Part shown: one piece after another, positions 5,308 to 64,000 of the stretch
How positions within the stretch are numbered: the first letter of the stretch is position 1
How the letters are laid out: every line of letters starts with the position of its first letter
NCBI GenBank assembly: GCA_965178125.1
Contig: OZ237775.1
Span: 124,001 to 188,000 of the forward strand
Direction of reading: 5' to 3'
Length of the DNA: 64,000 nucleotides
Source of the DNA: Bilabrum cf. latius
Taxonomy: Eukaryota
The notes under the pieces: generated by a model
Database searches by the model: none
The model's input: the letters and a program-made list of their open reading frames with translations, nothing else
Told to the model about the DNA's origin: nothing
Position numbers and translations under genes: made by a program

Positions 5308-7173
5308 AAGGTTGCGGTGATCGGATCCAGAGTGGGTCCCGTTATGTTATACTTCGAAGGTGTTACTTATCTTTGTCCAATCTGACGTTTGGTTGTACTG
5401 CCCCGCGAAGTCAGCCTTAGAGGTGCAGGCCCTCGAGTCTAATTGTGACCTGTCAACTTCCACATCCGCATGTGGTCGGGTAATCCGATCCCCCCCATCC
5501 GAGTCACTCGTCACACACATGCCCAAACCCCCACCCGGCCTGTGCCTCCCCCTTCCAATCCGCCGCATCAACCCGATGAACCCACCAATCATCTTCTCTT
5601 CCACTACTTCCCCCCCTTTCCGGTGAACCGTCGCCCCTCTCCCTCTGCTCTGTCCTCCCCCCCAAACCCAACGTGGAGGTTGCTAATGACACCTTGGGTG
5701 AATGAAGCAATCGGAATTTAATTCGGTGGAGTCAGGTCCGATTTTGGTCTGGCTGCACTGATTGCATCCTTCGAGGCATGAGTTGCCTGGAGGATCAACG
5801 GTGCATCAGCGGCTGCTGTGGTTGGATGCGAGGGCTTGTCCCGCAACAACCCGTCTGTTTTGGTCATCGCTACGCCTGTGTTAGGTGTTCTACCGCACGG
5901 GTACGGCGTTGATCTGGATTTTCGAATTGTGTGCTCTTTCACTGTCGTGGATGGCATCTTAAACCAAGATTCCTATCCTATCCTATCCCTCCATTCGCCC
6001 ACCCCACCCACCCCCCCCTCTGTACTTCCCTTCCTAGCCGCTCTCCCTCTCTCACTCCTCCGCATCGCTACGTCGCATCGGAGCCTGCACCTTGAGCGGG
6101 TCCTGCGCCCACGGAGTGACCTCAATCTCAGAGACCTTGCTGGCCTCACCAACAAAGGGTCACGACCCCTTGTTGCTTGGGTGCGGCGGCTACAGCAGTA
6201 CGCAGGGAGGGATTTTGGTCAAAACTCCTAGTATCGCATATAAACTTAAGTATCTATTAAATAGGAGATTCTGTAGATTATTTTTGCTTGGCGTCGTGCA
6301 GCCTGAGACCACGTCAACGGCGGCAGTGCTTCCCGAGACCCGGGCAGCCCCCGGATACCACTGAGTCCGGACAGCCATTTCTGGACACCTCGCCCAAGGA
6401 TCAAATTCTTAGCTAGTCTAGTACTTGGAATATACACAAAATGAAACCAAATCCACGGATTTGGGCTTCTCGCGGCAAGTTGAGGTCGATGAACTTGGTC
6501 GCTCAACTCTGCATTCAAATAAATTCGTTCTGAACCACCGAAACCGCGGTAGGTTCACGGATATAGTTGCGTGGATACTAAAAACCCGAAAAAGTTCGTA
6601 GTAGAGGGAGGTAGGGAAGGGGGTCAGGCTTCGTTTTTATGCCAGACCAGCCTGAAGAGCATAGTGTTGCAACATACCTGCCCAACACGACACGACCGCA
6701 TCAAATAACGTAGAAAACACATTTTGGCCCACAAAATAGTGCAGTACAGCGCCCATTCCTCGGAAGAATGCTCAAATTATAGAATTCGGCTCTGCCAGCG
6801 AGCACTCAGGACTGGCCAGCACGCCATGCCGCTCGACATTAAACTCAACTTTGCCAATCAAAAGGGCACATAAATCTATTCTCCATAAAACGGTATCAGA
6901 GATAATGCCTCAATCTAGGCGAGAATCGCATCACCTTGTCGAGCGGGCCATTGGAGCGATTTGCGGGATCCAGAACCTCAGATCCAGCGACTCAATCTCA
7001 GTGAATAATCAATTTGATGGAATCTGCAGAGTCTCGAAAGAATTCATCGGGTGGGAGCCGAAAAAAGTGGCTGGAAAAATACCGGCCCCTTTCCCGTCGC
7101 AACTGTGGGCGCCGCCGCGCCGACCAGCTCCGGTAACTTTTTTTCGAGCGCGGGTTATTGAGACTAGATCTAG

Positions 7174-9363
7174 TCACTGCGTTCTTCTTTTTTTGGCAGC
7201 GGGCTCGTCCACCTGCATGTCATCATCATCGTCATCCTAATCATCCCCGGGCGGGGGCTCGTCAGGCGACCGAGGCGCAAACCCACCCACACCGTTGTCC
7301 CCGGGCGGGGGCTCGTCCGGCGACCGAGGCGCAAACCCACCCACACCGCTGTCCCCGGGCGGGGGCTCGTCCGGCGACCGAGGCGCAAACCCACCCACAC
7401 CGTTGTCCCCGGGCGGGGGCTCGTCAGGCGACCGAGGCGCAAACCCACCCACACCGCTGTCCCCGGGCGGGGGCTCGTCCGGCGACCGAGGCGCAAACCC
7501 ACCCACACCGCTGTCCCCGGGCGGGGGCTCGTCCGGCGACCGAGGCGCAAACCCGCCAACACCGCTGTCCCCGGGCGGGGGCTCGTCCGGCGACCGAGGC
7601 GCAAACCCATTCGCCCCAGTCCCAGCCTCCTACACTACCGCACTCGTCACACGCACCGACGCCATGAGCATCTTGCCCCTCTGCACCTCTTCCACCTTTG
7701 TGATCTCCCCCACGCCCGCGAGTGCTCCCCTGAGTCCCTACACGTCGTAGTTCCTCGGCAGCTTGAGTAGAACCCACCTGCACTTGCCCCGCTCGCACAG
7801 GGTTCTCACGACCCCCTTGAGGGGCTGTTCCCCGAGGTACAGCTCCAGTGCCTGCACCTTGAGGTACTCTGGCCCTCCCCACGGGGGGTCGAAGAACACC
7901 AGGTCCTGCTGCAGCTGCAGGGGCACTACGGCTCCGTCACCGCAGTGCACGGTCACCCTGTCGGCGACCCCCGTGACCCGCAGGTTGTGCTGCAGCAGCT
8001 CGGATCTCTGCCTGGAGATCTCCACCGCGTGAACCTTCGCGAACCTTCGCCCGAAACTGATGGTGTTTCCCCCCACGCAGGCCGTGGCGTCCGTTACTGT
8101 TGCTCCCGCCCCTACGAGCGAGACCGCCTCACTCGTCATCCTCTCCGCAAGATCGGATCGAGTCACGGAGAACAGGCTCAGGCTGTCCAGCTTCAGCCGC
8201 TCCACCACTTCCGGTTTCTCTCCAGAGAACAGCTGCTTCCGCTTGAACCTGGGCCTCTCCGGGAGCCCGCTGGAGGGCCCCTGGTAGACCTCCGCCTGCA
8301 CGTCACTCGCGGCCGCCCTGGAGGCCTGCAGGCCCAGGCTGGCACCATGCACCGCCGCGCTGGGGGCGTGGGTCAGACCAGAGGATGCTAGGGAGGAGGA
8401 TGGCTACATCGCACTCGTCTGCACCTCCTTCCCCGCCAGCGCCCACTCGTCATCATCCTCCTCCATGTCGCTGCCCTCGTCCTCGTCCTGGTACCCCCCC
8501 TACCCCTGACCCCCCATGCCCATCGCCCCCCGAGCAGCCGCACCCGATCCACCCGAGAAGCTGTACTGGGCACTCGAAGCTGCAGCAGAAGATGAAGATG
8601 AAGAGCTAGCGGCAGGCGCTGACAAGGCCCCGGCCCCATTGGATTCGGAGTCGAAAAGCGGCTTGAAGGCCTTCATCGCCGCCCCGGCACCGTCCTCATC
8701 CTCCTCGTCCTCCTCCGGCCCCTACCCCTGCCCCTGCACCGTGCCAGGACCCGCCCCGACGGCCCCGCTGCGTCCTGCATCCCCGCCACCGAGACTCAGA
8801 CCGTCCAACTCGTCACCCCCTTGGGATGCACTCGTCACACCAGCCCCGCCCGCCCCCGTCTTCGCAGGCGCCCAACCGTCCACCACCACCAGCAGCTCCA
8901 GCTGTGGCGAGCCCAGCAACCTCCCGTCGTGCGGCGGGAGCACCACGAGTCTAGCCCCTGCTGGCGGCTGCTGGGCCCCTCCCTGCAGCGGGGCGAGCAC
9001 AGCCGCTTTGGGGGCCGAGGTGCCTGCCAGCCCGTGGAGCAGGTACTTGGCGAACCCGGTGAACTGCGCAGGGAGATCGTCAGGTCAGTGGGCTGGGAGA
9101 ACGCAGCGATGCTCATGTTTTTCTGCAAGGTTCTCATGGAAGCGAAGCAAAGCGTCGCTTACTTTGTGGGCGCGGTCCGGCTAGCTGCACCTGAGCTTCA
9201 CGAGCCGAGTCGAAGGGGGAGGCAGCTTGCCACGCAGGTACTCTTTGACTACAAATCGCTTCGGCCTGCAGTGTATCAACAAGTAGTTGCGCAAGCAACT
9301 GCCTATTTCCGTTGCGTGGAGCTGGGGTAATGTGGATCTGTGAGCTACGTGTAGCTTACCCAT
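7174..9363 (-). CDS. Trimethylguanosine synthase-like RNA cap guanine-N2 methyltransferase with C-terminal SP/PPP repeats; start uncertain
   Basis: SLFSVT..VTDATACVGGNTISF..VHAVEI..LQHNLRV..DLVFFDPPWGGPEY..LKLPRNYD matches TGS-family motifs. The frame stays open through TAGs (9181, 8722, 8500, 8404, 7738, about 7631, 7237) to TGA at 7174-7176. Probable intron 9064-9162 (GTAAGC..CACTGAC..GCAG). Confidence 0.8.
7245..7609 (-). repeat. 54-bp coding tandem repeat, about 6.7 copies (GGFAPRSPDEPPPGD[S/N]GV)
   Basis: Near-perfect units visible at 54-nt spacing. Confidence 0.95.
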
Positions 9364-9733
9364 TGAACCAAGGCTTGGCCTCTGCTGGAATCGCGCTTGA
9401 GTTCGTCGCCATGCACATGCTAACCGGCGCAGACCGACCATTCTCAAGGACGCAAAGTTGGACTGGGCGGCTCGACATTTTGGACGCTTTGTGCGCACCC
9501 TGGCGCTGCTCTGCACCTGCTCGTCAACCTGACTCCGTGCAGAGGAGTAAGATTTGCCCACACCGGGGTCACTACAATTATTTCGTGAATCGTACCAATC
9601 AAATAGAAAAAGGTGCAGTGATTCCCTGGGACAAGCCCCACAATGGAAGTTCAAGCTGACAATGGAAAGTGCACGTTACCATAACGAAGAGTCGTTGGAG
9701 GGAAAGGAAACTAGGCAGCAGTACAGCCTATCT

Positions 9734-12700
9734 ATGGCAGCTAGAGGCGGTGCGCTCGCACCTAAAGCTAGTGCTGCCGCAGCGGCACGTCGACGGGACG
9801 TAGCGAAGGGAAAATCGAATATTTTAGTGGCTGTCCGGGTCCGACCGCTAAGTGGAAAGGAAGCTGGCAGAACGAAGTCGGTAGTCAAGGTAGTAGATGA
9901 GAAGCTTGTCGTTTGCATGGACCCTGGTAGAGCTAAAGACGATGTACTCCGTGCAAAGCGGTCTAGGGAGCGACGGTTCGCGTTTGATCATGCCTTCGGA
10001 CCAGATTCCGAGCAGGCGGCAGTATTCGAGAACACGACCGCTTTCCTCTTGGATGGGGTGCTACAGGGCTACAACGCAACCGTATTTGCGTACGGAGCTA
10101 CTGGGGCCGGAAAGACTTACACCATGCTCGGAAAGGAGGGCGAGGCGCGCGGCATCATGGTGCGCACGCTGGAGCGGCTCTGGTCTGGGCTGCAGAAGCG
10201 AGCAGAGGAAGAGAGGACGGAATTTTCCGTAACTATGTCGTACATTGAGCTGTACAACGAGCAGATCCGTGACCTGCTCACTCCCTCCTCCGAGGCCCTC
10301 GATCTGAGGGAGGACCCCATCAGGGGGCCCGTGGTGGCGGGCGTCACAGAGGTCGAGGCAAGCGGGGCGCAGGAAGTCATGAGCATGCTGCAGCAGGGAA
10401 ACGCGCGTAGGACGCAGGAGAGCACCGCCGCAAACGCCGAGAGCAGCCGGTCCCACGCCGTGCTGCAGGTGCTGGTGGAGCAGCGGAGCGCCAGCCAGGA
10501 CGAGGCCCAGGTCAGCAAGCTCTGCCTCATTGACCTGGCGGGATCCGAGCGGGCCTCCAACACGAAGAACAAGGGGATCCGGTTGAGGGAAGGCGCCAAC
10601 ATCAACAGGAGCCTCCTCGCCCTCGGCAACGTGATCAACGCCCTGGCCAGCGGGCAGCGGGGCACCTTCGTGTCCTACCGTGACAGCAAGCTCACGAGGC
10701 TGCTAAAGGACTCGCTGGGCGGCAACGCAAGGACCGTCATGATCGCGGCAGTGAGTCCGTCTTCGGGCAGTTTCGAAGAGACGCTCAACACTCTCAAGTA
10801 TGCCAACAGGGCAAAGAACATCAAGACAAGGGCCACAAGGAACGTTGTATCGGTGGCTCATCACGTGTCAGAGTACGAACAGCTGATCAAGGCACTCAGG
10901 GGGGAAATCTCGCAGCTGAAAACTCGGCTAGAGGGGGCTGAGGCCGAGGCAGATGGAGACGGAGGGGTGGGAGGGGAGGGTGCAGGCGGGCCGGGGTTCG
11001 CAGTAGAGGTGGGAGCTGGGGCGGGGTCGGGCGCAAGCAGCGGCGCGGGCGGTGCTGGGGTCACATCCCCTGGACTGGGCGGGGGCAAGGGCCGCTCCCC
11101 CCGGGCCAGCATGACGGGGGGTGCTCGGGCCCGCATGCGCGCCCTCCGCCAGGCCCTGGTGGAGTCCTTTAGGGATAGGACCCAGCTGCGGCAGTCCCTC
11201 AGCGAGCTGGATGCCACGGATGCCAGGAACAGGGCAGAGGTGAGCAGGAGACAGCTCCTCGTGGCGAGGATCGAGCACGCCCTCAAGCAGAGCCAGCCGG
11301 GTGCGGCACCTCTAGACATGACCATGACGGTCAATGACCGGGCCGCGGTTCTCCAGCTCAAGGCGACCGCGGCGCGGGCTGCCGCCGCCTCCCACGAGAT
11401 TCAGGGCCACCGGCACGTCCTGCAGGAGCTCCGATCCTCCCTGGGGACGAACGACCAGAAGCGCGAAGAGCTCAAGGGGGAGCTCAAGGACTCGGAATCG
11501 CAAACGCAGCGCATTCTGCGGGAACTGGAGGCGGTTGGCGGTGCCTCGGAGGAGGGGAGGGAGGTGGTCCTGCTGCAGTACCAGCTGGGGCTAGCCGAGC
11601 TCGAGAAGATGGAGGGGGAGAGGAGAGTGGAGATGCACGGGGCCATCCTGAGGGAGAGAGAGCTGGAGCTGAGGAAGATGAGGACGCAGCTGAGGGCGAG
11701 GGACCGGCTGATCCAGCAGTGTTCCCAGTTGATCGTGGACAGGGGGCTGGCTCATCTGGTAGACCTGGAGGCTCTGGAGGCAGTGGACAGGGAGCTTGCG
11801 GGGGAGGACGGCGAGCTGGGGGAGGACACGGACGATGGAGACGTGGGAGATGACGATGAGGAGGAGGAGGAGGAGGAGGAGGAGGATGCGGCCAGCGGTG
11901 CCTCCAGTGTCGGGGGCGGGCAGTCGTCCGTGTCTCCTGCGGCCCATGCGGCAGGTGTGGGTGCTGGGGCGGGTGCGTCGTCCAAGCGCACCCCTGCCCC
12001 TCGGGGCGCTGCTGTCTCCATCGCGCTGGAGGCAAACAGTGGGGCGACGGATCGATCGGGGGTCGGAGCTGGGAGCTCATCGGTGGCGCATGGCAGCAGC
12101 GGCAGTGGCAGCGGCGCGGGCGCGGGTGTTGGCGTGTTCGAGGGAAGGCATCCGCTGAAGGTTGAGGTGGACAGCAGCGAGGAGAACTCCCCCGTGGGTG
12201 CATCGCACGGCGTTGCACAGGGGAACACAAGAGGCACCCCACCCAAGGGCAAGGCAGGTGCACTGCACGGTGGTGCGGCTGGCCGGGACCTGACCCCTCT
12301 GTCGAAGGCCATGGTGGAGAGCAGCGGCAGGGGCGGCAGGCGTGCTGGTGCTGGTGCTGGCGAGAGAACAAGGAAGCAGCCCGGGGGGATGCGTGCTATT
12401 GGGCATGAATCAACGGAGCTGGACTCGGCGCACTCCCGACCGCAACGAGCCGGCAACATGGGTGCAGCGTGGGGCGGCAAGGGGCCCGGGCAGGGGTAGG
12501 GGCAGGAGCGTGGGTAGGGGTAGGGTGGGTAGGGGTAGGGGTAGGGTGGGTATGCCGGTCTGGACCGCGCGCGCCAGGCCAGACACCGCCTCGCTGTGGA
12601 GGCACCCGCCACGCAGCACCTGCCCTCTGCTCTGCTAGGCGCGGGGAGGCGGGTGGTGAGTGGGCCCGTGAGGACGGGTGCAGGGCACGGTGGTGCGGAT

Positions 12701-15004
12701 CTGGGGGGCAGGGCTGGGGGCCTTGACCGTCCGATGGTCCCGCCGGTGCTGCCCATGCACGCCGACTTGGGCCCATCGCAAGGGCAAGGGCAAGGGCAAG
12801 AGACGCGTGGGTATGCCCAGGGACACGGCCGCAGCCTGAGCGAGCGCAAGCCGGGGCTGCCGGGCCGGGGCCGTGGAGGGGGCGGGGGCGGGCGAGGGCG
12901 GCGAGGGAACAAGACGAAGCGGCCGCTGCACCGAGGCAGAGATGCTGCCGCGAGGGACCGTGCCGGAAGCGGTGTGACGAGTGCAGCGGCGAGCCAGGGC
13001 GATGGCGTCCGGTCCTCCTACGATCCGGCCCCGTACAGGTGGACGCCCCGTGTGGACGGGCCGGGCGCCTCCTCCTCCACGGGTGCCTCAGGGAACAACA
13101 AGCAGAAGAGGAGGCGTCCTCGCGGGGCGGATCCCTCCCCCATCCAGCTGGATCGGGTGAGGGGGTCCATCGAGCAGGCGCAGCGGGCGGCGCAGAGGGC
13201 GGGTGCTGCATCTGCCATGGAGGACGAGGCGGGATCCAGGGAACAAGGGGGTGGTGGAAGGGGAGGGGCAAGGGATGCGGGTGTCTCGCCCAGGGGACTG
13301 CACAAGAGAGGCGGCAGCGGCGGGCGGGGCTTGCATTCGCAGTCGCACCCAAACCTCTCGCCCAGACCCCTCCTGGGTGGTGCGGGGCTTCAGCGGGGCG
13401 GGCTGGCCGGGGCTGATGTGGGCAAGGGGCAGGGGAGGAGAAAGGGGGCGGCGGAGGCAGGGCTCCAGGACGGGGTGTGGGGGGGCCAGAAGAGGCCCAG
13501 CGGGACTGGCTCAACGGCTAGTGGGGCACATGGTGGGAACTCCCGGCCAGGGAAAGCGTGGCTGGGGGACTCTGGTGAGGAGGAGGAGGAGGAGGAGGAG
13601 GTGGTGGAGGGCAGGCGAGGCGGTGCAAGAGGAGGAGGGGATGGGGGGGAGCTGAAGCCGCTGTTTGGGAGACGGAAAGCGGGGGGTGCAGGGGGCGCAG
13701 GGGGGGCAGGGGGGGCAAGGAGACAGGTCGACAGCACGTCGTCTGAGGACACAAAATTGGCGGTGGTGGAGGAACTTGGACAGGAGGGTGCGGGTGCATC
13801 GCATGGGGGTGCAGTTGCAGCTCGAGTCAGAGGTCCCTCTCCGCCCGTGGGAGACGACGCTTCCTCAGGGACTGGGACAGGGACTGGGAGGGGGCGGGGC
13901 CGGGGGCATCAGAGGGGCCGCGTGGCTCCGCACCGGCGGAAGCTGCTGGGCCAGGCACAGGAGTAGGGCGTGGCTGTGGGTCAGGGCAGGAGCAAGGGCC
14001 AGGGCCAGGGGCAGGGCAAGGAGCAGAAGGCGAGGCTCAGGCAGCAGGCGGCCATCTACGGGGCGCAGGTGCACCCAGCCGGTGCGCGGCGCCGCGGCGG
14101 AACCAATCAGAGGTCTGGGTCACACAAGCGAAGCGGGGATGGGGATGGTGGCGCCGCGCGTGCGGATCCACTTCAGCCGGTTCCGCACGTGGCCAAGCCT
14201 CGGCCTCAGCTGTCACCTCTGCCTGGTGCTGTTCCCAGGGGCGTGTCACCCGAGGGAACAAGCCAGGGAACAAGCGATCGGATGCAGACTGGACAGGGGC
14301 ACGAATCATGGGACGCAGGTGAGGAAGACCCAGACCCCTACGAGGCTATCGGTCTGTCGGGGCTCGGCGCAGGCTCAGGCATGGGCATGGGCATGGGCAG
14401 TCCGACCGGTGGGCTGGGCTCCCTGGCTTCCCCGTTCCCGCCCCCACCTCCACCAGAGAGCAGCAGGACAACTGGGACCGGTGCGCCGGTTGCAACCGAT
14501 GCTGGATTCCGGGGCGGGGATGCCAGAGGGATGGATGGGGGCAGTGGCAGCGGCAGTGGCAGCGGGAGCCGTCGAGGGTCAGCGGAGTCGCCCAGCGAGC
14601 TTGACAAGCCCAAGACTACTCCGAGGAGGGGAGAGAAAGAGGGCGAGGAGAAGCAAGGGGGCGAGGGTGCATCGCATGGCGGTGTGCACGCTCGACCGAT
14701 CGGTGCGTTGATGTCACCGCCGAGGTCTGAAGGCATGGGTGCATCGCACGGTGGCGTCTCCGGGGAGAGCGGGCTGTGGAATCGGAAGAAATCACCGCTG
14801 CTTGGGGCGCGAGCTGGTGCAGCGAACGAAGGTGCGGGGGAAGGGAAGGACGAGGACGATGACTTTGGGGACGATCTGGATGCGAGCAGGGAGGGGGGCA
14901 TAGGTAGAGGAGGCGAGCACAAGGCGGGCGGGGCAGAGGAAGAGGCAGGAGCCAGTAGCAGCGGCAGTGGGCCTGACCTTGCCCCAGGGCAGGACATGAT
15001 CTGA
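9734..15004 (+). CDS. Kinesin-8 family (KIF18/KIF19-like) motor with coiled coil and long Gly-rich low-complexity tail
   Basis: NILVAVRVRP, P-loop YGATGAGKT, SSRSH, DLAGSE, EGANINRSLLALGNVINAL, YRDSKLTRLLKDSLGGN, ETLNTLKYANRAKNIK. ORFs 9554-12499, 12596-13966 and 13970-15004 join via 7 TAGs and end at TGA. Alternative start at ATG 9662. Confidence 0.9.
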
Positions 15005-20580: not shown

Positions 20581-20583
20581 CCG

Positions 20584-54296: not shown

Positions 54297-56387
54297 ATGG
54301 CAAGCGCTGGACCTCCAGAGAAGAAGGCTCGCATTGAAGTATCATCTTCCTCATCTGCTGCGAGCGCTGCTGGAGGCGCAGCCACTGGAGGAGCTTCCGT
54401 GGCTACCTCTTGGGTTGAGGTGTCTGAGGCCCACGGCTTCCCTATCCAGAACATCCCATTCGGGGTCTACAAGCCGAAGGAAGAGAAGTCAGATGACAAG
54501 GCGGTATGCGCTAGCCGAATCGGTGATTTCGTGAGTATCGTTTTTTCGCGTGTACTATCGCGTTGTGACATGGCCGCGTGGACGAATCATGCCCAAATTC
54601 CTGTGCATTCCGGTTTCAAACAACTGCTTCAAAGCATTCTGTATTTAATGGTTATTTTTATTACAAGTGCGGCTCTATTGAGCTCCTTTGTCACGGACAA
54701 TCAATGCTGATGTGCCTGCGATCTTCCCCACTGTTCGGGGAACGGACGACTCGCAAATTGGTGACCGATTCAATCCTCCACAAGCGTACGCCACACAATT
54801 TATATCGTAGGCCATTAACCTGCGAGCCCTAGTGGAAGCTGGACTTCTCTCTGGCGATTGGGCCAAGTCACTGACCGAGGAGACGCTCAACTCGTTCATG
54901 GGGCAGGGCCGGGCATCGTGGAGGGACTGCCGAGGGCAGCTGCAGGCCCTGCTGGCAAAGGGCGGAGACGGGGAGGCCAAGGTGCGCGGCGCTGGTGCCC
55001 TGGTTCCGCTGTCGGAGGTGCGCATGGTGCTGCCGGCCCGCATCGGCGACTACACGGACTTCTACTCCTCCCGGGAGCACGCCACAAACGTGAGACTAAG
55101 AAGAAAAACGGAGCGCCTCATGTTTTGATGATGATGCGTGCATATAAAAGGGTCTATCAAAGCACAGCTTGCGAGGGTACCTCACCGATGGGAGGCTGGG
55201 AGGCTGCCGGCACACAAAACCACAAAACCGCCGCGTTACGCCTCGACCCCCTGCCCCCTTCTTTGTTCTGTCCCTTTCTCCCCCCCCCCAACCCTGCCCC
55301 CCTGTATGCTTGCTTTCCATTCCTATGCCTATCATCGCATCTCATCGCAGGTGGGCACCATGTTCCGCGGCAAGGAGAACGCCCTGCAGCCCAACTGGCT
55401 CCACCTCCCCGTGGGCTACCACGGCCGGTCTTCCTCTGTCGTGCTGTCGGGCACGCCCATCCGGCGCCCCATGGGACAGCTGCAGAAGGACGCGACGGAC
55501 CCCAAGCAAGGCTCCGTCTTCGGCCCTTGCCGCCTCATGGACTTCGAGATGGAGGTGGCCGCGTTCGTTGGCCCAGGGAACAAGCTCGGCGAGTCGATCA
55601 AGATCGAGGAGGCGGAGGAGCACATCTTCGGGCTGGTGCTCATGAACGACTGGAGCGCGAGGGACATTTAGAAGTGGGAGTACGTCCCCCTGGGGCCGTT
55701 CACCGCCAAGAACGTCATGACCTCCATCTCGCCCTGGATCGTGACTCTGGATGCCCTTGAGCCGTTCAAGTGCAAGACATCGGCGGGGGAGCAGACGGAC
55801 CCCAAGCCCCTGCCCTACCTCCAGGACCCCGACTACAGGTCCTACGACATCGACCTAACAGTGAGCAGAGCTGAGCTTGGGTGTCTAGTGTGCGGTTGCA
55901 CTGCATTGCTGCATATGCCCTATACTGCTCGCAACTCAGAACTCAAGCGGGGACTCATATGTGTGCCCCCTCCCTATGTTCCCCCGCTCCCACTTGTTCC
56001 CTCACTTGTTCCCTAAATCAGGTTGCCATCAAGAACAAGAGCCTTCCAGCAGGCCACGTCGTGTCCAGGACCAACTTCAAGTACCTCTACTGGAATGTGA
56101 AGCAGCAGCTCGTGCACCACACTGTGACTGGGTGCAACATGCAGCCGGGCGACCTCCTGGGCTCGGGAACCATCAGCGGCCCTGACCCGGGCATGTTCGG
56201 AAGCATGCTGGAGCTCTGTTGGAAGGGCACCAAGCCCATGGACATGCCCGACGGGTCCACCCGAAAGTTCCTCGCAGACGGCGACAGCGTGGTGATGACG
56301 GGGGCATGCACGGGCGAGGGCTACTCGATCGGGTTCGGGGCCGTGGAGGGTGAGGTGACGCCTGCGGCTGGTGCCCCTGCCTCATGA
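54297..56387 (+). CDS. FAH: Fumarylacetoacetase
   Basis: Exons 54297-54530, 54811-55089, 55351-55860, 56022-56387. [63 protein letters not shown] (TAG 55669-55671), [32 protein letters not shown]. Confidence 0.97.
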
Positions 56388-56527
56388 GCGGAAAGCGACA
56401 AGAAGGGGGTGCCGGGCCGAGGGCAGCTTAATTGAGCAAGGTGTGGCAGTTGGGGGTAGTGTGGATTTGAAAGCCGGGTAGCACAGTTGTAGCAAGGGGG
56501 CAAAGATAGAATTTCCGTATTTGTTAG

Positions 56528-57394
56528 TTAGTCGCAACACTGGGCCACCAACTTTCCCCCGCTGTAGAAAGGGTCCAGCAAAGACAGTCCCATCGAAGAG
56601 TTCTCCGACTTGAACAGCCCAATGGAGACCTAGGAAAAGTGCACATGGAATCCGAAGCAAATCTGCCCACCCGTGTGCCCAAAAGTTGCCGTGCCCTGCC
56701 CCCAGGCGCCCGCCAGGCCGACCGCGGCTTGTCCAATCGTAAAGATCCCTATGGCCACCTGCCCCACGGCCACGATTCCCCACGTGATCTGCCCTACGCT
56801 AAAGAAGCAAATGTTGTCCCTCGCGTCTGGAATCGTCGCGCACACCGCCTTGTACCCAATTTTGTCGGTAAACAAAAGCTAAAACGTGAATATAGTTGCG
56901 GTAATCAGGGCTCCGCACCAAATTACCATCCCGAATCCCCAGCAGATGTAGGTTGATGTGTCCCAGTCGCTGGGGGCAGCACACCGCCAGGTAGAACAGT
57001 CCAGGAACGATCGCTTATCCTTCGGCGTGTCTCCCGTGCCAGCGGCGGCGCTGCCCGATGCCGCCTGCCCATCTATCTCAAGCTTAGCAGGATTGCTCAA
57101 CTCTGCAACGCAGTGGTCGACCAGCAGCCAGCAGTTCTCGTCCCAGGCAGCCGGGTCTTGCACTTTCTGGAACCGGTTGTAAAATGCCACTAAACCGCGG
57201 TCCATATTGACTGCTTTTTGCAGCTCTTTGGACTATCTTATCGTACCAAGCGTGTCTGTTAGATACTGCTTAATCTGACTGTCCGGACATGCCATCATTC
57301 TGTCCACGATATCATCCCAGACCTGCTGTGGTGTCTGCGGCGGTGTGCTGGCGGGCTAATCAGCCTGTTGTAGCAGCTGGCTGTCGCGAATCAT
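56528..57394 (-). CDS. Hypothetical membrane protein with periodic xxGQxxxG repeats
   Basis: ATG 57394 (MIRDSQLLQQ); 4 TAGs join ORFs 56879-57205 and 56630-56875. TM ICWGFGMVIWCGALITATIF, then SVGQITWG/AVGQVAIG/TIGQAAVG/AWGQ/TGGQICFG; ends at TAA 56528-56530. Confidence 0.7.
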
Positions 57395-57585
57395 TCATCC
57401 AAGTAAAGAAGCACAATTTAATTGAAGATTGTTAGATACTACCTCTATAACCAAGTGGATATGGCCCCGCTTGCAGCTGCAGGCCAACTTGTCGAATTAA
57501 TGTGACGTGCACTTTTGGCAAAATTGCAGAGGCACAAAAGCACCCGGGACCAATCGCACCCCGCTTCGACCTTGCGTACTGAAAC
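57395..57585. promoter_or_regulatory. Probable short bidirectional promoter region
   Basis: 191-bp AT-richer gap between divergent ATGs at 57394 (-) and 57586 (+). Inferred from geometry only. Confidence 0.4.
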
Positions 57586-58818
57586 ATGCAGGCATCGCTC
57601 GAAAGGTTTAGTGATAGCTTATCAAGGGCGGTTCGACGGGCTAAAGAGCCGCAATATTTGCCCTACACGATCGTGGCGGGAACAGCTACTGCAGTTGTAG
57701 TTGGCGTTGCAGCATACAGATGGATTACTGCCCCTGCTGAGGGCAAACTGTCTGATGATTAGTAGGTATTTGAGGATGGCGTGACTGTCAAGACATCAGC
57801 TGGCTAGTCTGTCGTGACCCGAGTCCCACGGACGACGGCTGGTTTCACAGAGGCTGGTGCAATCCTAGCGTCATCGTACGCTAATAATCCAATGATGAAG
57901 GCATCTGTTGCCAAGGTGAGATCACACATCACAAAATCGTGCGTTATTTCGCTGTATTTCCGCTGTATTGCTTGATGTTGTATGCAATGCGGAGAATTGG
58001 ATTGGATCCTAATCTTGATTAGTCAGTGGTATCAACCCGGTGATAAATAGTCTTGTGTCACTTGTATAGTACCGCAGGATGTTAGCGACGACAAGCGAGA
58101 GGCTGCGGCCCGCTGGCTGTTCGAGCGTCTTGCTCGCTCCGCGGGCTACTCGTCCACGGGCGCCCTCGTGCTCCGCAGTGCTCCCTCAAAGTAGGCCACG
58201 GCGGGCGCGGTGGCCGTGGTGTTTCCCCCCGGCGTGTCCTCCGCCAGCGCGCGGCTGCAGTCGGAGATGTTCTGGCAGGGCACCTGGGGCTACCTCACGG
58301 TGTTTGGCTCGCTGCAGGGGCTCGGCCGCCTGCTCAGCCTCGGGGAGGTGACGGAGTTGGCGAGGGAGAGGCTGACGAGTGCGGTGGCCAAGGAGTCGGG
58401 GTACGTGTACGTCATGTCGCTTGGCGGCACAGACGCGGGCAGCAGGGCGGGTCTGCTCTCGGCCGTGGGCCAGATGGCTGACAGGAAAGGGGTCGTCTGC
58501 TTCTCGGAGACCTACGGGGAGGACTAGGACTCGGAGCTGAAATCCGCTGGGTTCGAGGTGGTGGACGAGCGGCCGCAGCTGTTCGGACTCACGGTCCGCT
58601 ACTGGATGCGAGCGGCGAGGGATGCCTCTGGCAGGTCGGTGCAGGACATCAACAGGTACGCGCTGAGCAATGTGGACACGGGCGGGTATGCCCCGGACGA
58701 GCTTGAGGCTGGTTTCAGGGCACACGAAGAGGAAGAGGCGCGGAAGGCCAGGGAACAGGAGGACGCGAAGAAGGCCAAGGCGGAGGAGGCCAAGGACGAC
58801 GAGGCGGGAGACATGTGA
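57586..58818 (+). CDS. GNAT-fold N-acetyltransferase-like protein with N-terminal membrane anchor
   Basis: Exons 57586-57915 and 58078-58818 (intron GTGAGA..CGCAG). AGAILASSYANNPMM, GAVAVVFPPG, YVYVMSLG, ADRKGVVCFSET..GFEVV; 5 TAGs; ends TGA. Confidence 0.65.
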
Positions 58819-59275
58819 TCGGATCAATGATCGGATCATTCGAGGGTCCAGCGACGTGGGTGGGGCGAGGCTAGGGGAGTGCTAAGCCACTGAATGCACA
58901 GCACAGCACGGCACTGCAGTGCAGTGCAGTGGGCGGCCTACCCGAGCCTGGAAAGTGTCGGGAGGGTAAGCGTCAGTAGATGCTAGCATCGATGCTAGTC
59001 TACTTCGATGGCTGCTGTATTCTTGGGTCCTAGCACGCCCGTTGCAGCGGCAGGTGCGGCAACTGCAAGCCAGATGCAGCGGTAAATATTCGAGAGCCAG
59101 GCCTATAATTGGCCTTGCTGCTCGAAACTGCTGCGCTGTGCTGCATAGCACATGTCGCCGGCATCCCACTTGCTGGCCCCTTTTTTGGCATAACTCAGAC
59201 TTTGTAGTGTGTTATTTTGGATATCCGTTTGGGGCGTTTCAAGGCGATGCAGTACGCTGCTCAGAACAGTATCCG

Positions 59276-60178
59276 ATGTCAAAGGCATACAAAAGCTCTG
59301 TATTGGAAGGTAATTGGCAGGAGGACCGCGCGCCGCCGCTCAAGTTTGGTATCTATGGCGACTTTGGCTGGCGTGAGACCGCTACATCTGCCAAAACGGA
59401 TTTCTCCCACCCAGATAGGCGCGAGAAGCGAGTGCAGCGGCCTGAGCGGTTTGGAATGGTGTGCGAAGAAACAATAACGGAAGCTAGATATGCATATGGG
59501 TCTGGGCTCGGCGCAGGCGCCACAGGCAGTGGATTCGGCGCGCTCATCAAGGCAAAGGACCCGATCGACGAGATGCGGCTGTTTGAGACAACAAGTGGAG
59601 ACTATGGGGCCAAGAAGAAGGCATCCGCCGGAGGTAAGGATGGCGGGAAGTTTGGCTTGACGATGACGGGACCCGGGACGATGGGATCCAGCGGCCGTGC
59701 TGGTGAGGCAGCATCCGCCGCGGAGCAGGGCGCGCCCGGGGCCACGATCCGAGGGTCCCATTTCGATCAGATGGCGAAGCGAAGCGCGCGCATGGAGGTG
59801 GCCGGCGGGCCCGGCAGCCGTCGCCCGGAGCGCGGCATGCTCACGAGCGGCATGATCGGGGAGCGGCCGGTGCTGTCGGGGGCAGTCAACGGAAGCCGAA
59901 CGGACGTGCAGAGAGCATGGATGCCGCAGAAAGATCCTGGATTGGCAGCGTACGAGCGCCGCGCACGCGGTGAGGTGGACGTGCCCCCTGACACGAGCTA
60001 CATGTCGGTTCAGGTGAAGGGGGGGGGGCCTTAGGCCGGGGTGGTGAGGGCGGCGGGGGCAGGGCAGAGGGCGCGGAGCCAGACGGCGGCCTGGCAGGCA
60101 CCGCCCAGGACCGTGACGATTTCGGCGACCCAGTCGGATATCAACCGTAGGAGGGGGGTGAGGGTGTTTTCGGATTGA
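59276..60178 (+). CDS. Putative ciliary microtubule-inner-protein with N-terminal NWE-like motif
   Basis: MSKAYKSSVLEGNWQEDR resembles the Y-x-x-x-V-L-x-G-N-W-x-E-x-R motif of CFAP107/CFAP68/CFAP95-type proteins; TSAKTDF and FETTSGDY-type motifs; TAG 60032 read through to TGA 60176-60178. Confidence 0.55.
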
Positions 60179-60440
60179 TGCGGGTGGGCGGATGGGTGGA
60201 TGTGTGGGGGGCCGTGCTTGCTGGTACGATAGAGTGTCCTCTATTTTGTCTTAGTATGCCGCGCTGTGAGTGTACACATGAGTGCCAACGATGATCTATG
60301 GGTGTGGATGAAACACCACGGTCTGGGCAGTGCTGCAGCTGCCGACAGCCCAGGCCCGGGGCTGCTCAGCGAGCTTGTTGCGGTTTTGCTCGCACGGGCA
60401 ACGCACGGAGCTTTCTGTGCAGTCTTGGCCAAGGCAGGCC

Positions 60441-62114
60441 ATGGGATGGCATGTCTTAGGCATGATTGCTTTAGTAATGAGCAGTCCAATAAATTCCCAG
60501 CGTTTGGAAAGGAAATTGGTCGCCGGCACAGCATCGCTGCGAAGGCTTGGAAAATGCCCAGCTGATTCAGAACAAGGATTTTACTTCCAGCAGCAGTTTG
60601 AGGCAGCAAATGCAGCCTGTACTGCATCATTTGACAACTGCATGCGCAATTCGACTGCTGGAATGTGTTCTGGCATGTGCGATCGGGGTATCAGTGAGTG
60701 ACCGCCAGCGTCCACGTTGGTGTCGCGCTTTCCTGTGCATACTTGTGGGTGTCCCCTTTTCAACTGATTTTTTATCGCAGGTGCATTTGCGCACGATTGT
60801 GTCGTGGCGAACGGCGTTTTCTGCCATGCAAGACTGCATGGGACATTTCCTGGTACGTACAGCAGTCGAGCGCTCGTAGGTTCGAGCAGCGTAGGCCAGC
60901 TGGTAGCAAATGCCAATAGATTTATCCGTTAGGTTGCTGAGATATTTATGCCAAGTGCTATTTTGGCCGATAATGGCATGGAGCCGCGTACAGATCGAAT
61001 TGACCAAGCAACCCGGCCGGGGTCGACCGTGTCGGACTCGATCGCATCTGCCGCATCCCAGCAACTTGGGGGAAAGGACAACCAGTCAACGCGAAGAACC
61101 TAGCACAATACCAGAGAGCTCGCGGCTAGGACATTTTCGATGACAACGGGCACTTGCCTGCCGGATACGTGCCACAAGCGCGACATCACGGGGCCATTCG
61201 AAATCGCAGTCGCCAGGAAGTACTGCCAAGCCCACGGAATTCCGGCAATCAAATGCAAGAATGCCGCGATGTCCCTGCAGTGCGATTTTGGCCTGCGGCC
61301 GTCCGTCATGTGGACTGTGGTCGGATGCGTGCTCGGCGCCATGGCTCTCGGCCTCGTGGCCCTCTGCATTTGCTGCGGTGCCAACGGGGCATGCCCCGGG
61401 GGGGGACGGTACGGCCGCAGGGGATTTGCGACCAAAGGGTCTCTGCTGGTGGAGCTGGAGCTGCTCCGTTAGAGACGAAGGAACAGCGATGGTCCGTTGC
61501 TGATGGGCCTCGTGGACAGCGACGGCGAGTTTATTGAGGATGACGGCGAGGGGGGCGGGGGCGAGCATGGCGACAGTGGGTGCGAGCTGGACGCATTCGA
61601 TGGCGGGTCTGGTCCCCGGGGGGGCCAGGGGCGGGGCCGGGCCCAGCGGGGGATGTTCAGCTAGTTCGAGTTGGGCGGTGGTGATGAATAGGGGGGGGAT
61701 GGGCACCAGGCGGGGGGTGAGGGGCTCGAGGGCCCGGGATCGGGGCGCAGTGTGACGAGTGCGAGGGTGACAATGGGGTCCAGGGAACTGTCGCCCACAG
61801 ACGTGCTCGTGCAGCAGTCTGGCGGGCGGGTGCGATCCCGGGGCTCGTCGCACGATCGTAGGAACGTCCGTGAACGCCGCGAGCTTGCCGAGGAGCTGGC
61901 ACACGCAGGGGCTGGAGTAGACGCTGTGAGCGCGCCGGGGGCGATGACCACTCGATTTGGGGGGAGTGTCCAGGGGATGGACATTGGGTCTGTCTCCAAG
62001 GCGGGGGCGATGCTGGGGAGCGAGGCACCGAGGACGCAGCAGCTGCTCGCCTCTCCCCGGCCGCTGTCGGAGCAGCGAGATTCCAGGGAGCGATAGAGTC
62101 TTCTAGAGACCTGA
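60441..62114 (+). CDS. Type I membrane protein: signal peptide, Cys-rich ectodomain, TM, low-complexity tail
   Basis: Exon 1 60441-60693 (MGWHVLGMIALVMS), intron 60694-60780 (GTGAGT..ACTGAT..CGCAG); TM VMWTVVGCVLGAMALGLVALCICC; 6 TAGs; TGA 62112-62114. Confidence 0.65.
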
Positions 62115-62379: not shown

Positions 62380-64000
62380 ATGCGAGCGGCATGTGTAGCC
62401 GTACTGGCTGCATGTGTGTCATGTATATGGTCCTTACTCGGCTTATAGTCTGCGAGCTTGTCCACAGGCGAGCTTAAGGTACGGGGGACGTTTGCGGCTG
62501 AGACTGCGCTGTTCACAGCAGAAGACCCCAACTACAGCTTCAAAGCGCAGGATGTGAGCCGAGTCTCAACCAAATACATACTGATTGCAGCGACACAATC
62601 GCCAATTTTTGCTATGTTGCCCGCTGTGGGTTGAACTGCTCGCAGGTATCGGCAGCCCATGGGTACTCTGAGGCATACGCTACAAAGCTGTGGAAAGCGG
62701 CGTCTAGTAGTGATATCGGCCAAGCGTGGGAAGGCATAGTTGACACTTGGACAGCGGGTGTACTGCGCGGCATGGGCTTCCAGACAGCGGTGCAGCCTCG
62801 CGGCGGGGTCGTGGCTCTGCTGCGTGGCCCAGGGGGTGGCGCAGACACGGACTCTATCGTACTGAGCGCATTCGAGCCTCGTGCGTGCTGGTCTCTTGGA
62901 CGAGGCAGCAACAGCACGCACCACGGTGGGCCGGCTGCATCCCTCGTGGACTACGCGTGGAGCGGCAACGGCAGGACTGTCTGCTCGCTGCGGCATTAGT
63001 ACGGTTCAAGCACAGCCGCTGCTGGCGGCGATGCTTCTCACCCGCCAATCATCCGCTGCACGCAAAATACGGCGGGACTCTTCGTCCTGCTCGCCTCCCT
63101 GCAGCGCATTGCAGCGTCCCCATGGCGGGCCAAAGACGTTGTGGTGGCTATCCTGCCGCCCCCAGGTCACTCGTCACACCTCGCGCCGCGGTGCGGGGCT
63201 GCCGGCAGAGGCGTACGCGGCGAGAGCAGACGCGCGCATCTACCCCTCACTCGTCACACCGCTGACCCGTCGCTTCTCCTTCGTCGTCGCGCCCGACAGC
63301 TCGCCTCGCTGCTGTCGGTCTCCGCACCCCCCCCTGCTGCTGCTGCTGCTGCATCGCGCGGGGGCGATAACCGGAACAAGCCCGGGCCGCACCTGCCTCC
63401 CTCGATGAGGCTATCCGCGGCACCCACGTCCGGGGTGGCGCTCGCTTGGCCTTGGGGCGGCGCCGCGCGCGGCATGGCGGTGGTTCCGCAGGGCCTGGGC
63501 AGCGGATCGGCCTCGGCCGACATGGACCTGTTGCACAAGCTGGTGCAGGACATCGCCGAGCCTGCTGTGCCCAGGGCCAGGGCAGTCGGTGCGGGGAGGG
63601 GCGTGGGCGGTGGACTGGCGGGGGTGGGAGGTGGGGCTGGTCGCGGGAGTGATTTCGCCAAGAAGGGCAAGGGTAAGGGCAAGGGAGGCCGCGCGCGGAT
63701 TGGGTACGGGCGCGGGGCCACGCCTGCCCCGGGCACGGTGGTCGCTGGATCGGATCATGGATCGGATCATGGGTAGGGGGCTGCTCGGTCAATGATGACG
63801 AGTGCGGGCGCCCTTGTGCTGGACTGCGGCAGGTGCCAGGTGCCTGCAGGTCGAGCAGGCGAGAGAGGAGGGAAGGAGGGGTCGGGTGAAGACAGCGTCC
63901 AGAGACAGTGGAGGCAGGGCATGGTGGTGTCAGTCGGTGACCTGAGTACCGCAGGGGGTGGTCAAAGCGGGGATGGGACTGCGCTACAGGCTTGGATGGA
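62380..64000 (+). CDS. GAA1: GPI transamidase subunit GAA1/GPAA1-like; 3'-truncated by window edge
   Basis: N-terminal TM, RGTFAAETALF (cf. TYxSENAL), intron 62554-62645, VALLRGPGGGADTDSIVLSA (cf. ILRAPR..TEAIVL), WRAKDVVV (cf. WAKDI), ADMDLL (cf. PNLDL). TAGs at 62446, 62997, 63774; frame open to the end. Confidence 0.65.

Follow-up and report, generated by a model that had tools for sequence, protein, structure and literature searches.

Locus and genetic code

The stretch of DNA analysed here (64 kb, hereinafter the window) contains genes for a TGS1-like methyltransferase, a kinesin-8 with a long tail, a thioredoxin-domain protein, GH3 proteins and an SRCR protein (Table 1). The kinesin, LRR and SRCR genes, together with GT..AG introns that are bridged by spliced contigs, support the assignment of the host to eukaryotes made in the preliminary description. 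The genome is GC-rich and contains many microsatellites.

The main new result of the analysis concerns TAG, which in this genome appears to be translated, probably as glutamine. When TAG is taken as sense, long ORFs cover 81.5% of the window (see, e.g., the TAG-containing ORF in Table 1), and 17 of the 18 exact copies of the dispersed word TGTGACGAGTG become coding. The gene models of the preliminary description, outside which copies were also placed, took TAG as a stop; under the revised reading, a single copy lies outside an ORF.

Table 1. Copies of TGTGACGAGTG, near-matches and associated features of the window
Feature	Coordinates	Strand	Context
ORF, 2929 codons, TGA-to-TGA	45245–54034	+	16 in-frame TAG, no internal TGA/TAA; 7 exact and 2 near copies
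Gap between diverging ORFs	5308–7173		
Gap between diverging ORFs	9085–9550		
Gap between diverging ORFs	23219–23662		
Gap between diverging ORFs	42925–43204		
Gap between diverging ORFs	44381–45244		
Word copy	5505–5515	-	Sole copy outside long ORFs; ~200 nt 3' of the TGA ending ORF 1–5307
Word copy	7641–7651	-	Sense, V-T-S; ORF 7174–9084 (-), TGS1-like methyltransferase; right after Pfam domain
Word copy	8829–8839	-	Sense, V-T-S; ORF 7174–9084 (-), N-terminal low-complexity part
Degenerate copy GGTGACGAGTT			22 nt downstream of the 8829–8839 copy
Word copy	12973–12983	+	Sense, V-T-S; ORF 9551–15004 (+), kinesin-8, long tail
Word copy	15870–15880	-	Antisense, L-V-T; ORF 15461–17788 (+), thioredoxin-domain protein; right after domain
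Word copy	24321–24331	-	Antisense, L-V-T; ricin-B/GH3 exon 23663–24874 (+), within GH3 Pfam match
Word copy	32304–32314	+	Sense, V-T-S; ORF 31399–36885 (+), SRCR protein; aligns without indel to L-A-A of paralogue (weak alignment)
Word copy	43748–43758	+	Antisense, L-V-T; GH3 exon 43205–44380 (-); paralogue of the 24321 copy
Word copy	51410–51420	-	Antisense, H-S-S; ORF 45245–54034 (+)
Word copy	51480–51490	-	Antisense, L-V-T directly followed by in-frame TAG; ORF 45245–54034 (+)
Word copy	51565–51575	+	Sense, V-T-S; ORF 45245–54034 (+)
Tandem pair (52366, 52381)	52366–52391	+	15-nt period; both sense, NVTSDGVTSA; ORF 45245–54034
Word copy	52951–52961	+	Sense, V-T-S; ORF 45245–54034 (+)
Word copy	53824–53834	+	Sense, V-T-S; ORF 45245–54034 (+); in frame only with TAG 53354–53356 translated
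Word copy	61751–61761	+	Sense, V-T-S; ORF 60768–62114 (+); poorly conserved stretch relative to L051
Word copy	63168–63178	-	Antisense, H-S-S-H; ORF 62502–63998 (+); non-conserved linker between L051-conserved blocks
Word copy	63248–63258	-	Antisense, T-R-H; ORF 62502–63998 (+); segment missing from L051 homologue
Near-matches, 1 mismatch	22238, 28728, 32140, 38914		
Near-matches, 2 mismatches	58371, 63794		
1-mismatch copy	49265	-	
Two 1-mismatch copies	52732–52808	+	52732 (C>T at CpG) and 52798; frame as sense copies

Over-representation and clustering of the word

The 18 exact copies of TGTGACGAGTG, nine on each strand, amount to about 1 per 3.6 kb, and every position and strand previously reported for them was borne out. 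Dinucleotide shuffling yields a mean of 0.01 copies, with 18 reached in none of 100 shuffles; Markov models of orders 1–5 predict 0.03–0.33 copies, and codon-order shuffling gives a mean of 0.009. The excess also survives a null that is aware of both codons and amino acids: when synonymous codons are shuffled in the 19 long ORFs with the proteins kept, the mean is 0.118 and the maximum is 2 in 1000 shuffles, compared to the 17 copies observed. Among the dispersed words of the window, TGTGACGAGTG ranks top for k = 9–11. Thus, the over-representation claimed in the preliminary description is confirmed.

The excess could be suspected to stem from base composition, codon bias, paralogy or errors of assembly in such a GC-rich, microsatellite-rich genome, in which two copies form a tandem pair and two others (24321 and 43748) are paralogous, as recognized previously, being located in the inverted repeat I2 (1200 nt, 93%). 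However, no null predicts more than 0.33 copies; 16 independent copies are left when the paralogue and the tandem pair are collapsed; four runs contain 97–98% of the sampled words from the 10-kb stretch 48000–57999; and related contigs, which were assembled independently, contain the word as well. This explanation was tested and is not supported, and we assign it a next to negligible probability.

The copies are clustered, with seven found inside 51410–53834. With the tandem pair and the paralogue collapsed, 6 of the 16 copies fall within 2.5 kb (P = 0.0026, 200,000 simulations).

Anatomy of the word and near-matches

The sequence information is limited to ~12–13 bp, from position -1 to position +1, and can be written as G-TGTGACGAGTG-(C/A). 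The extension of the 11-mer described previously is real but partial, given that G occupies position -1 in 13 of the 17 distinct copies and C occupies position +1 in nine. The flanks of the copies are unrelated, without detectable homology, and therefore the word is not a transposon, nor does it trace to one repeat family.

With up to one mismatch allowed, 25 matches to TGTGACGAGTG are found, compared to 1.19 expected, so that exact copies outnumber one-mismatch copies 18 to 7. The near-matches in the preliminary description do exist, but the coordinates were one base off, two of them (58371 and 63794) contain two mismatches, and three one-mismatch copies (49265, 52732 and 52798) were missing. 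Three near-matches have the form GGTGACGAGTG: those at 28728 and 32140 encode in-frame G-D-E-W/C, the former within a DEWGYVC stretch that recurs in a paralogue, and the one at 38914 is outside long ORFs; all three may be unrelated to the word.

The word in related contigs

In a related organism that shares the TAG-sense signature, nine metagenome contigs contain 31 copies in 45,488 nt, a density that is biased upward because these loci were chosen for carrying a pair of copies; the copies form 19 clusters, 10 of which lie beyond the locus-selecting pair. Weighing against the interpretation given below, a further 109 loci from that scan contain 46 extra clusters in 515 kb; L007, L077 and L103 are among the loci with 19 to 29 copies each, and short tandem arrays are present in 4 of the 5 other loci whose context was inspected. 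As the related contigs show, the word is not confined to this organism; from counts in the window and the selected contigs, we infer genome-wide enrichment.

Positional comparison of copies is possible in one related contig, L051, which is colinear with 56.6–64 kb of the window. None of the three window sites in this segment is shared with L051, and the doubled site of L051 is absent from the window. The two organisms are ~29% diverged at aligned coding DNA and nevertheless have the exact word in common, which implies continuing maintenance.

This requirement bears on the possibility that the copies are neutral relics of mobile or templated insertion, that is, transposon footprints, mini-insertions of ~15 nt, or minisatellite seeds with a common core. 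Tandem duplicates that share the core but vary in period (14, 15, 18, 22 and 24 nt), found in the window and the related contigs, are compatible with such an origin, as is the window copy located in a segment missing from the L051 homologue. Nevertheless, most copies are single, the flanks show neither homology nor terminal inverted repeats or target duplication, and in alignable paralogues, the word appears through substitutions, with the length unchanged. Together with the persistence of the exact word in two diverged organisms, these observations make an insertion origin quite improbable.

Site turnover between related species with the word itself unchanged, homotypic clusters with local tandem duplicates, and a short, non-palindromic sequence with a TGACG half-site would all be expected of an ordinary gene-regulatory transcription factor site, e.g., an enhancer within a gene or an alternative promoter to which a bZIP-type or zinc-finger factor binds. 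We consider this explanation unlikely, given that long ORFs contain 17 of the 18 copies, in some cases over 7 kb away from where the ORF begins. With a single copy, the remaining 18.5% of the window shows no enrichment, and the five gaps between diverging ORFs contain none, except for the 3' flank copy at 5505. Furthermore, regulators as a rule bind degenerate sites, yet here exact copies prevail over one-mismatch copies.

Reading frames, codon usage and conservation

In the window, each of the 10 sense copies encodes V-T-S, and the seven antisense coding copies are read as LVT, HSS or TRH. Both orientations occur inside one ORF, and antisense copies are present in ORFs with Pfam-supported GH3 and thioredoxin domains. 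The serine codon of the word, AGT, is rare, accounting for 11 of the 276 serine codons of conserved genes and for 171 of 1664 over the full set of long ORFs, and the valine codon is preceded by T, compared to a GC3 of ~0.75. The tripeptides encoded by the word are 1.7- to 4-fold above expectation: HSS occurs 8 times vs 3.4 expected, LVT 8 vs 4.7, TRH 5 vs 1.2, and VTS 14 vs 5.4, but 10 of these 14 come from an identical 9-mer, without which VTS is at the expected level. Sense copies are limited to the V-T-S frame because, of the other two sense frames, one is interrupted by TGA and one would give C-D-E-C; the word occurs solely in frames with tolerable peptides. The copies occupy poorly conserved positions, namely linkers and one insertion relative to L051, and in an SRCR-like domain, one copy falls on a variable position with no indel involved.

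The enrichment over the synonymous-codon null, the rare serine codon, the occurrence on either strand of verified genes, and the four different readings show that the word is kept at the nucleotide level rather than at the peptide level, as the preliminary description maintained. A signal acting in the transcript or the peptide, such as an element of the mRNA or a G-V-T-S-(A/D) peptide under selection (e.g., a modification site in low-complexity proteins), is accordingly highly improbable. Such a signal would be consistent with the V-T-S frame, which is used by each of the 10 sense copies of the window and by 16 of 17 sense copies from the related loci. However, the antisense orientation is found, in verified genes, for 7 of the 17 coding copies of the window and 12 of the 31 related copies, which encode three other peptides; a peptide signal would fix neither all synonymous positions nor a rare codon; and the stop codon and the C-D-E-C reading explain the frame restriction more simply. 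Because sense copies are somewhat more common than antisense ones (10:7 in the window, ~17–18:12 in the related loci), a weak transcript-level component is possible.

Comparison with known systems

The preliminary analogy with HIP1 and uptake sequences holds as far as behaviour is concerned, namely in the tripeptide excess and the poorly conserved positions; the preliminary interpretation as a whole is partly supported. According to the published account (PMC2817400), the USS of Pasteurellaceae and the DUS of Neisseriaceae are short, non-palindromic, hugely over-represented in both orientations and often intragenic, with more exact than near copies, an excess of the encoded tripeptides and a location at poorly conserved residues, all of which is also seen here, the tripeptides being at roughly doubled frequency. 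The word differs in its eukaryotic host, where DNA uptake is not known, in its lack of enrichment outside genes, and in a favoured frame that includes a rare rather than a preferred codon.

The highly iterated palindrome of cyanobacteria (HIP1), an 8-mer with a possible link to methylation or repair, is spread genome-wide over coding and non-coding DNA in several frames. The word is similarly short, iterated and present in coding and non-coding DNA in several frames, but it is an asymmetric 12–13-mer, and HIP1 is denser than ~1 per 3.6 kb. Chi-type words are asymmetric, mostly intragenic, as is the word, and are recognized in DNA by a repair/recombination machine; they are oriented with replication, and no strand switch point is evident within the 64 kb, a span too short for replication orientation. 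Nematode 12-mers, i.e., the meiotic pairing-centre motifs bound by zinc-finger proteins and the recruitment motifs of X-chromosome dosage compensation, share with the word a eukaryotic host, an asymmetric sequence of ~12 bp, strong enrichment and occurrence in either orientation. These clustered motifs function at the level of the chromosome rather than the gene; they are mostly non-coding and enriched on one chromosome or region, in contrast to the 17 coding copies among the 18 in the window. Finally, CRE/M26-type bZIP sites, which are recombination hotspots in fission yeast, resemble the word in the TGACG half-site and the ability to function inside an ORF. The "TGACG core" of the preliminary description amounts to no more than this half-site; the second, palindromic half of the CRE is missing, and the conserved length of the word is twice as great. 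Hotspot motifs are expected to erode, not to accumulate.

Interpretation

Splice-site, promoter, stop-context, peptide, RNA and mobile-element readings of the word were tested, and none fits. The best reading of G-TGTGACGAGTG-(C/A) is that it is a non-palindromic word of ~12–13 bp and not a coding, splicing or promoter signal. We give roughly an even chance to the possibility that the word is recognized in double-stranded DNA throughout the lineage and behaves dynamically like bacterial uptake or Chi sequences, a mechanism suggested by sequence statistics. The recognition would be due to a factor acting in trans, which might be a protein that binds this DNA sequence specifically or an activity in repair or recombination; new copies would arise mainly through substitution and would persist where coding constraint permits. 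Retention might be explained by conversion or repair bias favouring the word, which would fit what is described for bacterial uptake sequences, a mutation-drive-selection balance; no DNA-uptake bias is known in eukaryotes, so that drive is hypothetical. Alternatively, the density of sites might be useful to the chromosome, providing platforms for pairing, cohesion, recombination or replication. We consider a functional site of the chromosome and pure drive about equally likely.

Number and unit of the word

The word TGTGACGAGTG is present in 18 exact copies in the 64-kb window, nine per strand, at precisely the positions that the preliminary description had listed. Dinucleotide shuffles predict 0.01 copies (none of 100 shuffles reaches 18), and Markov models of orders 1 to 5 predict 0.03–0.33. 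With up to one mismatch, the window contains 25 matches vs 1.19 expected, so that exact and near copies stand at 18 to 7. For k = 9–11, no k-mer in the window is more widely dispersed than the word; its 10-mer, 9-mer and 8-mer cores are found 22, 26 and 30 times, respectively. An artefact of composition or assembly is excluded by all the nulls applied as well as by independent contigs and runs.

The flanks of the copies are unrelated, except for the pair 24321/43748, which lies within a 1200-nt inverted duplication. In a comparison of 17 distinct copies from the window with 30 from related metagenome contigs, information outside the word is limited to positions −1 and +1, with G at −1 in 13 of 17 window copies and 27 of 30 related-contig copies, and C or A at +1. 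Thus, the unit is a 12–13-mer and not part of a longer repeat. The lack of homology between flanks, together with the logo of these 17 + 30 copies, which is informative only at the two adjacent positions, also eliminates a transposon, a MITE or an introner as the source. No palindromy is detected, the word being distinct from its own reverse complement (the two orientations are counted separately). The TGACG core that had been suggested as a protein site is present as a half-site, but the complementary second half is missing, the next conserved bases being AGTG, and a CRE/ATF bZIP site is accordingly rejected.

Seven copies fall within 51410–53834, the low-complexity C-terminal third of a 2929-codon ORF, and this clustering has P = 0.0026 after the tandem pair and the paralogue are collapsed. 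Between 51650 and 53700, the same ORF contains in-frame hexanucleotide microsatellites that yield dipeptide repeats (Gly-Ser, Gly-Ala, Thr-Gly and others). A minisatellite family built on this core would show tandem arrays of differing unit length; short arrays of two to four units with periods of 14–24 nt are found at 52366 and in some of the related contigs, but 14 of the 16 independent window sites are single. In two runs (X5 and X7), contigs carry three adjacent substitutions at 52363–52365, directly 5' of copy 52366, that bring the flank into line with the consensus, ...GG ahead of the word; either a conversion of several bases or variation in the copy number of the 15-nt unit could explain this change. 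Short joints or loose ends in run contigs at 52365/52366, 52394/52395 and 61767 hint at similar word-bearing stretches elsewhere in the same runs, but their sides of 20–24 letters, at a likeness threshold of 93, are too short to count as evidence. TG replaces the CpG in two near copies, one at window position 52732 and the other in L051 (a metagenome contig partly colinear with the window); this is compatible with methylation-linked decay, although two cases are few.

Genome context

Pfam searches of the window identify a kinesin motor, RNI-type leucine-rich repeats, SRCR domains, GH3 with ricin-B, and SDF transporters, i.e., eukaryotic genes. A search with the kinesin-8 motor yields matches of at most 64% identity, the best named ones being from stramenopiles (57–61%). 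Five GT..AG intervals are skipped by contigs of three presumed-RNA runs and not by a DNA run; these introns are listed in the table. Such contigs are silent on ends, strand and expression level, and parts of the window that they do not cover carry no weight here. None of the five bridged junctions is located at a copy of the word, all start with GTGAG, the reading frame runs on through the copies, and seven copies are antisense, which disposes of a 5' splice site or another splicing signal. All five introns belong to a lower-GC stretch of about 7 kb (54285–61600) and are AT-richer than the exons. This stretch lacks a copy of the word; an empty interval of 7.9 kb is not significant given 18 copies per 64 kb (P ~0.1).

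Several duplications are apparent in the window. Inverted arms at 23720–26646 and 41503–44359, 93–94% identical, each contain a ricin-B/GH3 gene and a second ORF, and the intervening ~15 kb encode two SRCR genes and a GT61 gene. Two paralogues of the sodium:dicarboxylate symporter family (SDF), 18079–20580 (+) and 20756–23218 (−), are convergent, tail-to-tail, with arms 71–87% identical. The region 2134–5100 consists of about 35 tandem 84-nt units that correspond to 28-residue RNI-type leucine-rich repeats with mutual identity of up to 97%, and the opposite strand of this array is open over most of its length. Seven 54-nt tandem units at 7190–7675 encode the 18-residue repeat GFAPRSPDEPPPGDSGVG at the C-terminus of a TGS1-like methyltransferase ORF, in which a copy of the word is located where the domain gives way to these repeats.

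TAG as a probable sense codon

Many standard-code ORFs in the window stop at TAG and then stay open in the same frame. If TGA and TAA alone are taken as stops, very long ORFs emerge, each in a single frame (see the table); a control with TGA as Trp gives no comparable single-frame ORFs. In the coding frames of the 14 long ORFs checked, internal TGA and TAA are absent, vs up to 124 TGA in the other frames, and TAG is found 1–16 times per ORF, about the level of the other frames. All 13 complete long ORFs end in TGA. TAA never appears in frame in the long ORFs and, therefore, is probably still a stop. Translation with TAG as Gln yields ordinary domains, namely a TGS1-like cap methyltransferase, thioredoxin, SRCR and GT61.

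The gene 59276–60178 contains a TAG at 60032–60034, past which its homology to L051 runs on: of the 52 codons aligned next to this TAG and beyond it, 5 of which precede it, 17 match exactly, 22 differ synonymously and 13 non-synonymously, and both genes end at the same TGA. Of the five in-frame TAGs that the two aligned genes contain, two belong to the window and three to L051; they face E twice and Q, T and a gap once each. TAG also recurs within Gly-Gln runs (GQGxGQ). Judged from these alignments and reading frames, TAG behaves as a sense codon in this genome, most likely for Gln, with Glu being possible. A tRNA scan of the window detects no tRNA. Right after the first TAG of the kinesin, at 12497–12545, the run GxGQERGxGxGGxGxGxGG with Gly-TAG repeats resembles a Gly-Gln microsatellite that uses TAG and the normal Gln codon by turns; the kinesin frame is open from this run to 15004.

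Nuclear codes in which UAG is read as sense while UGA is a stop are already described in PMC5304391; reassignment of UAG alone is rare, with two non-ciliate cases as of 2017. A literature search finds no lineage that matches the code variant. For annotation of this genome, TAG has to be taken as sense, since calling under the standard code fragments proteins at every TAG. A scan of GC3 and codon log-odds under the standard code gives ambiguous coding calls until TAG is so read.

Copies of the word, long ORFs read with TAG as sense, and introns of the window
Feature	Position	Strand	Reading or remark
Copy	5505		outside ORFs, ~200 nt 3' of ORF end
Copy	7641		sense, V-T-S
Copy	8829		sense, V-T-S
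Copy	12973		sense, V-T-S
Copy	15870		antisense, L-V-T
Copy	24321		antisense, L-V-T
Copy	32304		sense, V-T-S
Copy	43748		antisense, L-V-T
Copy	51410		antisense, H-S-S
Copy	51480		antisense, L-V-T
Copy	51565		sense, V-T-S
Copy	52366		sense, V-T-S
Copy	52381		sense, V-T-S
Copy	52951		sense, V-T-S
Copy	53824		sense, V-T-S
Copy	61751		sense, V-T-S
Copy	63168		antisense, H-S-S
Copy	63248		antisense, T-R-H
Long ORF	1–5307	+	TAG sense
Long ORF	7174–9084	−	TAG sense
Long ORF	9551–15004	+	TAG sense
Long ORF	15461–17788	+	TAG sense
Long ORF	26856–31166	+	TAG sense
Long ORF	31399–36885	+	TAG sense
Long ORF	38919–41129	+	TAG sense
Long ORF	45245–54034	+	TAG sense, 2929 codons
Long ORF	60768–62114	+	TAG sense
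Long ORF	62502–63998	+	TAG sense
Intron	54531–54810	+	starts GTGAG
Intron	55090–55350	+	starts GTGAG
Intron	55861–56021	+	starts GTGAG
Intron	57916–58077	+	starts GTGAG
Intron	60694–60780	+	starts GTGAG

Position of the copies in genes

Nineteen long ORFs span 52,176 of the 64,000 bases (81.5%) and contain 17 of the 18 copies, without enrichment of the word outside ORFs. The claim that the word also occurs outside gene models thus holds for a single copy (5505); the other 17 turn out to be coding once TAG is read as sense, and the earlier placement of copies outside gene models is explained by standard-code calling, which cuts at TAG. Being internal to long ORFs in 17 cases of 18, the word does not qualify as a core promoter or a 5'-UTR element. 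Nor is copy 61751 a start or a leader, despite a contig that begins at 61741: this copy is internal to ORF 60768–62114, where homology to L051 extends in both directions.

Sense copies, somewhat commoner than antisense ones, are all read as V-T-S, and they are confined to this frame because the two remaining sense frames would supply a TGA or C-D-E-C. The antisense copies are genuine, given that the strand of the respective ORFs is set by Pfam domains (GH3, thioredoxin) or by homology to L051. The ORF 45245–54034 alone combines five sense and two antisense copies. A peptide or an RNA element is unlikely, given the antisense orientation of 7 of the 17 coding window copies and of 12 among the 31 that the related contigs contain.

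None of the 19 listed window ORF ends lies inside a copy, even if four of them finish with ...TGTGA or ...GTGTGA, and a role as stop-codon context, for which L051 offers a single instance, is rejected. There (L051:9861–9885), a doubled word contains the TGA at which the orthologue of a window gene, with its stop at 58816–58818, terminates; the window has another tandem duplication after this stop, and that one provides a second in-frame TGA.

Compared with the L051 homologue, copies 63168 and 63248 are located in an indel-rich, non-conserved linker between conserved blocks, the segment with 63248 being absent from L051, and 61751 is in a poorly conserved stretch. Copy 32304 aligns without an indel to L-A-A of a paralogous SRCR-like domain (a weak alignment, score 78). 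In one SDF paralogue, a copy with one mismatch sits in a patch of about 35 nt with clustered substitutions, no indel and well-conserved flanks. Given the indel-free alignments and the weak constraint on these sites, the copies seem to originate mostly by substitution at weakly constrained positions.

Retention at the nucleotide level

When synonymous codons are shuffled within each ORF, so that the proteins and the codon usage of the ORF are kept, the mean number of copies is 0.118 (sd 0.35, maximum 2 in 1000 shuffles) vs the 17 observed; shuffling of codon order gives a mean of 0.009. The DNA-level signal proposed in the preliminary description is therefore borne out against a codon-aware null. 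The encoded tripeptides are in excess as well: in the long ORFs, VTS is found 14 times vs 5.4 expected from composition, and HSS (8 vs 3.4), LVT (8 vs 4.7) and TRH (5 vs 1.2) follow suit. The identical GTGACGAGT encodes 10 of the 14 VTS, with AGT for Ser, a little-used codon that accounts for 11 of 276 Ser codons in conserved genes and for 171 of 1664 across the long ORFs.

Related metagenome contigs

A metagenome scan for two copies of the word within 30 nt matched at least 118 loci, with GC contents of all kinds; many of the loci listed carry several to 29 copies. Among the matches listed, nine loci are set apart (L003, L006, L025, L035, L043, L047, L051, L071 and L074), with the same −1/+1 preferences and unrelated flanks. 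In seven of these nine, reading TAG as sense lengthens the longest ORF 1.5- to 4.7-fold, and the same signature is found in L104; the contigs with this signature are L003, L025, L035, L043, L051, L071, L074 and L104. The nine loci, among the matches listed, total 45,488 nt and contain 31 copies, which form 19 clusters; 10 clusters are additional to the selecting pairs, and the density is biased upward by this selection. Relative to the longest covering ORF, 16 of the 31 copies are sense V-T-S and 12 are antisense; of the rest, one is sense C-D-E-C at a contig edge, one supplies a stop, and one lies just past that stop.

L051 is colinear with the window at 56.6–64 kb, with ~71% nucleotide identity in two coding blocks. 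In the shared region, none of the three window sites is present in L051, and the doubled site of L051 has no counterpart in the window. Thus, the word is kept across both organisms, which are ~29% diverged in aligned coding DNA, and the comparable sites are not shared. The other loci, at least 109, lack the TAG-sense and flank signature and are set aside; the 109 listed contain 46 extra clusters in 515 kb, and four of the five inspected for context show short tandem arrays unrelated to the window case. A scan of viral contigs for paired copies yields eight loci; each is an unrelated repeat that lacks the TAG-sense signature.

Likeness to known systems and possible mechanism

Taken together, the observations describe an asymmetric 12–13-bp word, maintained as a nucleotide sequence in either orientation, in frames that are cheap for the protein and regardless of gene features. 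Gene-internal, over-represented recognition words that distort the proteome are textbook knowledge for some bacteria, and the present word would belong to this type, the genome-wide recognition word. The proposed analogy with HIP1 and uptake sequences holds in kind but does not extend to palindromy: HIP1 is palindromic, whereas the word is asymmetric. Like the bacterial DNA uptake sequences (USS/DUS), the word is strongly over-represented in both orientations, and its tripeptides are in excess while its sites are poorly conserved; unlike these, its favoured frame uses a rare codon. For the uptake sequences, PMC2817400 reports encoded tripeptides that are approximately doubled and residues that are poorly conserved. 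A literature search finds no such iterated word for eukaryotic coding DNA and nothing relevant on dispersed 11-mers; searches with the word and its complement return only chance substrings of primers, and an Rfam scan of the window gives no match.

A trans-acting factor that reads the word in double-stranded DNA would account for these features in either of two ways. The copies might be useful chromosomal sites, such as platforms for pairing, cohesion, recombination or replication, a version that fits the clustering and the local duplicates. Alternatively, a conversion or repair bias could accumulate copies, as the uptake bias does for uptake sequences, a version that fits the proteome footprint, the excess of exact over near copies and the apparent disregard for gene features. 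The surplus of sense copies, the lack of enrichment outside ORFs and the rare codon of the favoured frame speak against the reading as a recognition word. What sets the case apart is its eukaryotic host and the location of the copies in coding DNA. A more far-reaching proposal, that the word is a genome-wide "self" word spread and kept by a sequence-biased DNA transaction (e.g., gene conversion or repair favouring the word allele) that reshapes the proteome, as uptake sequences do in competent bacteria, is a speculative one that we regard as unlikely. If true, this would be the first uptake-sequence-like molecular drive in eukaryotic coding DNA, in a lineage with reassigned UAG; and if a chromosome-level factor binds the word or conversion bias favours it, the word would give direct, sequence-based access to that process in a protist lineage that is so far unsampled.
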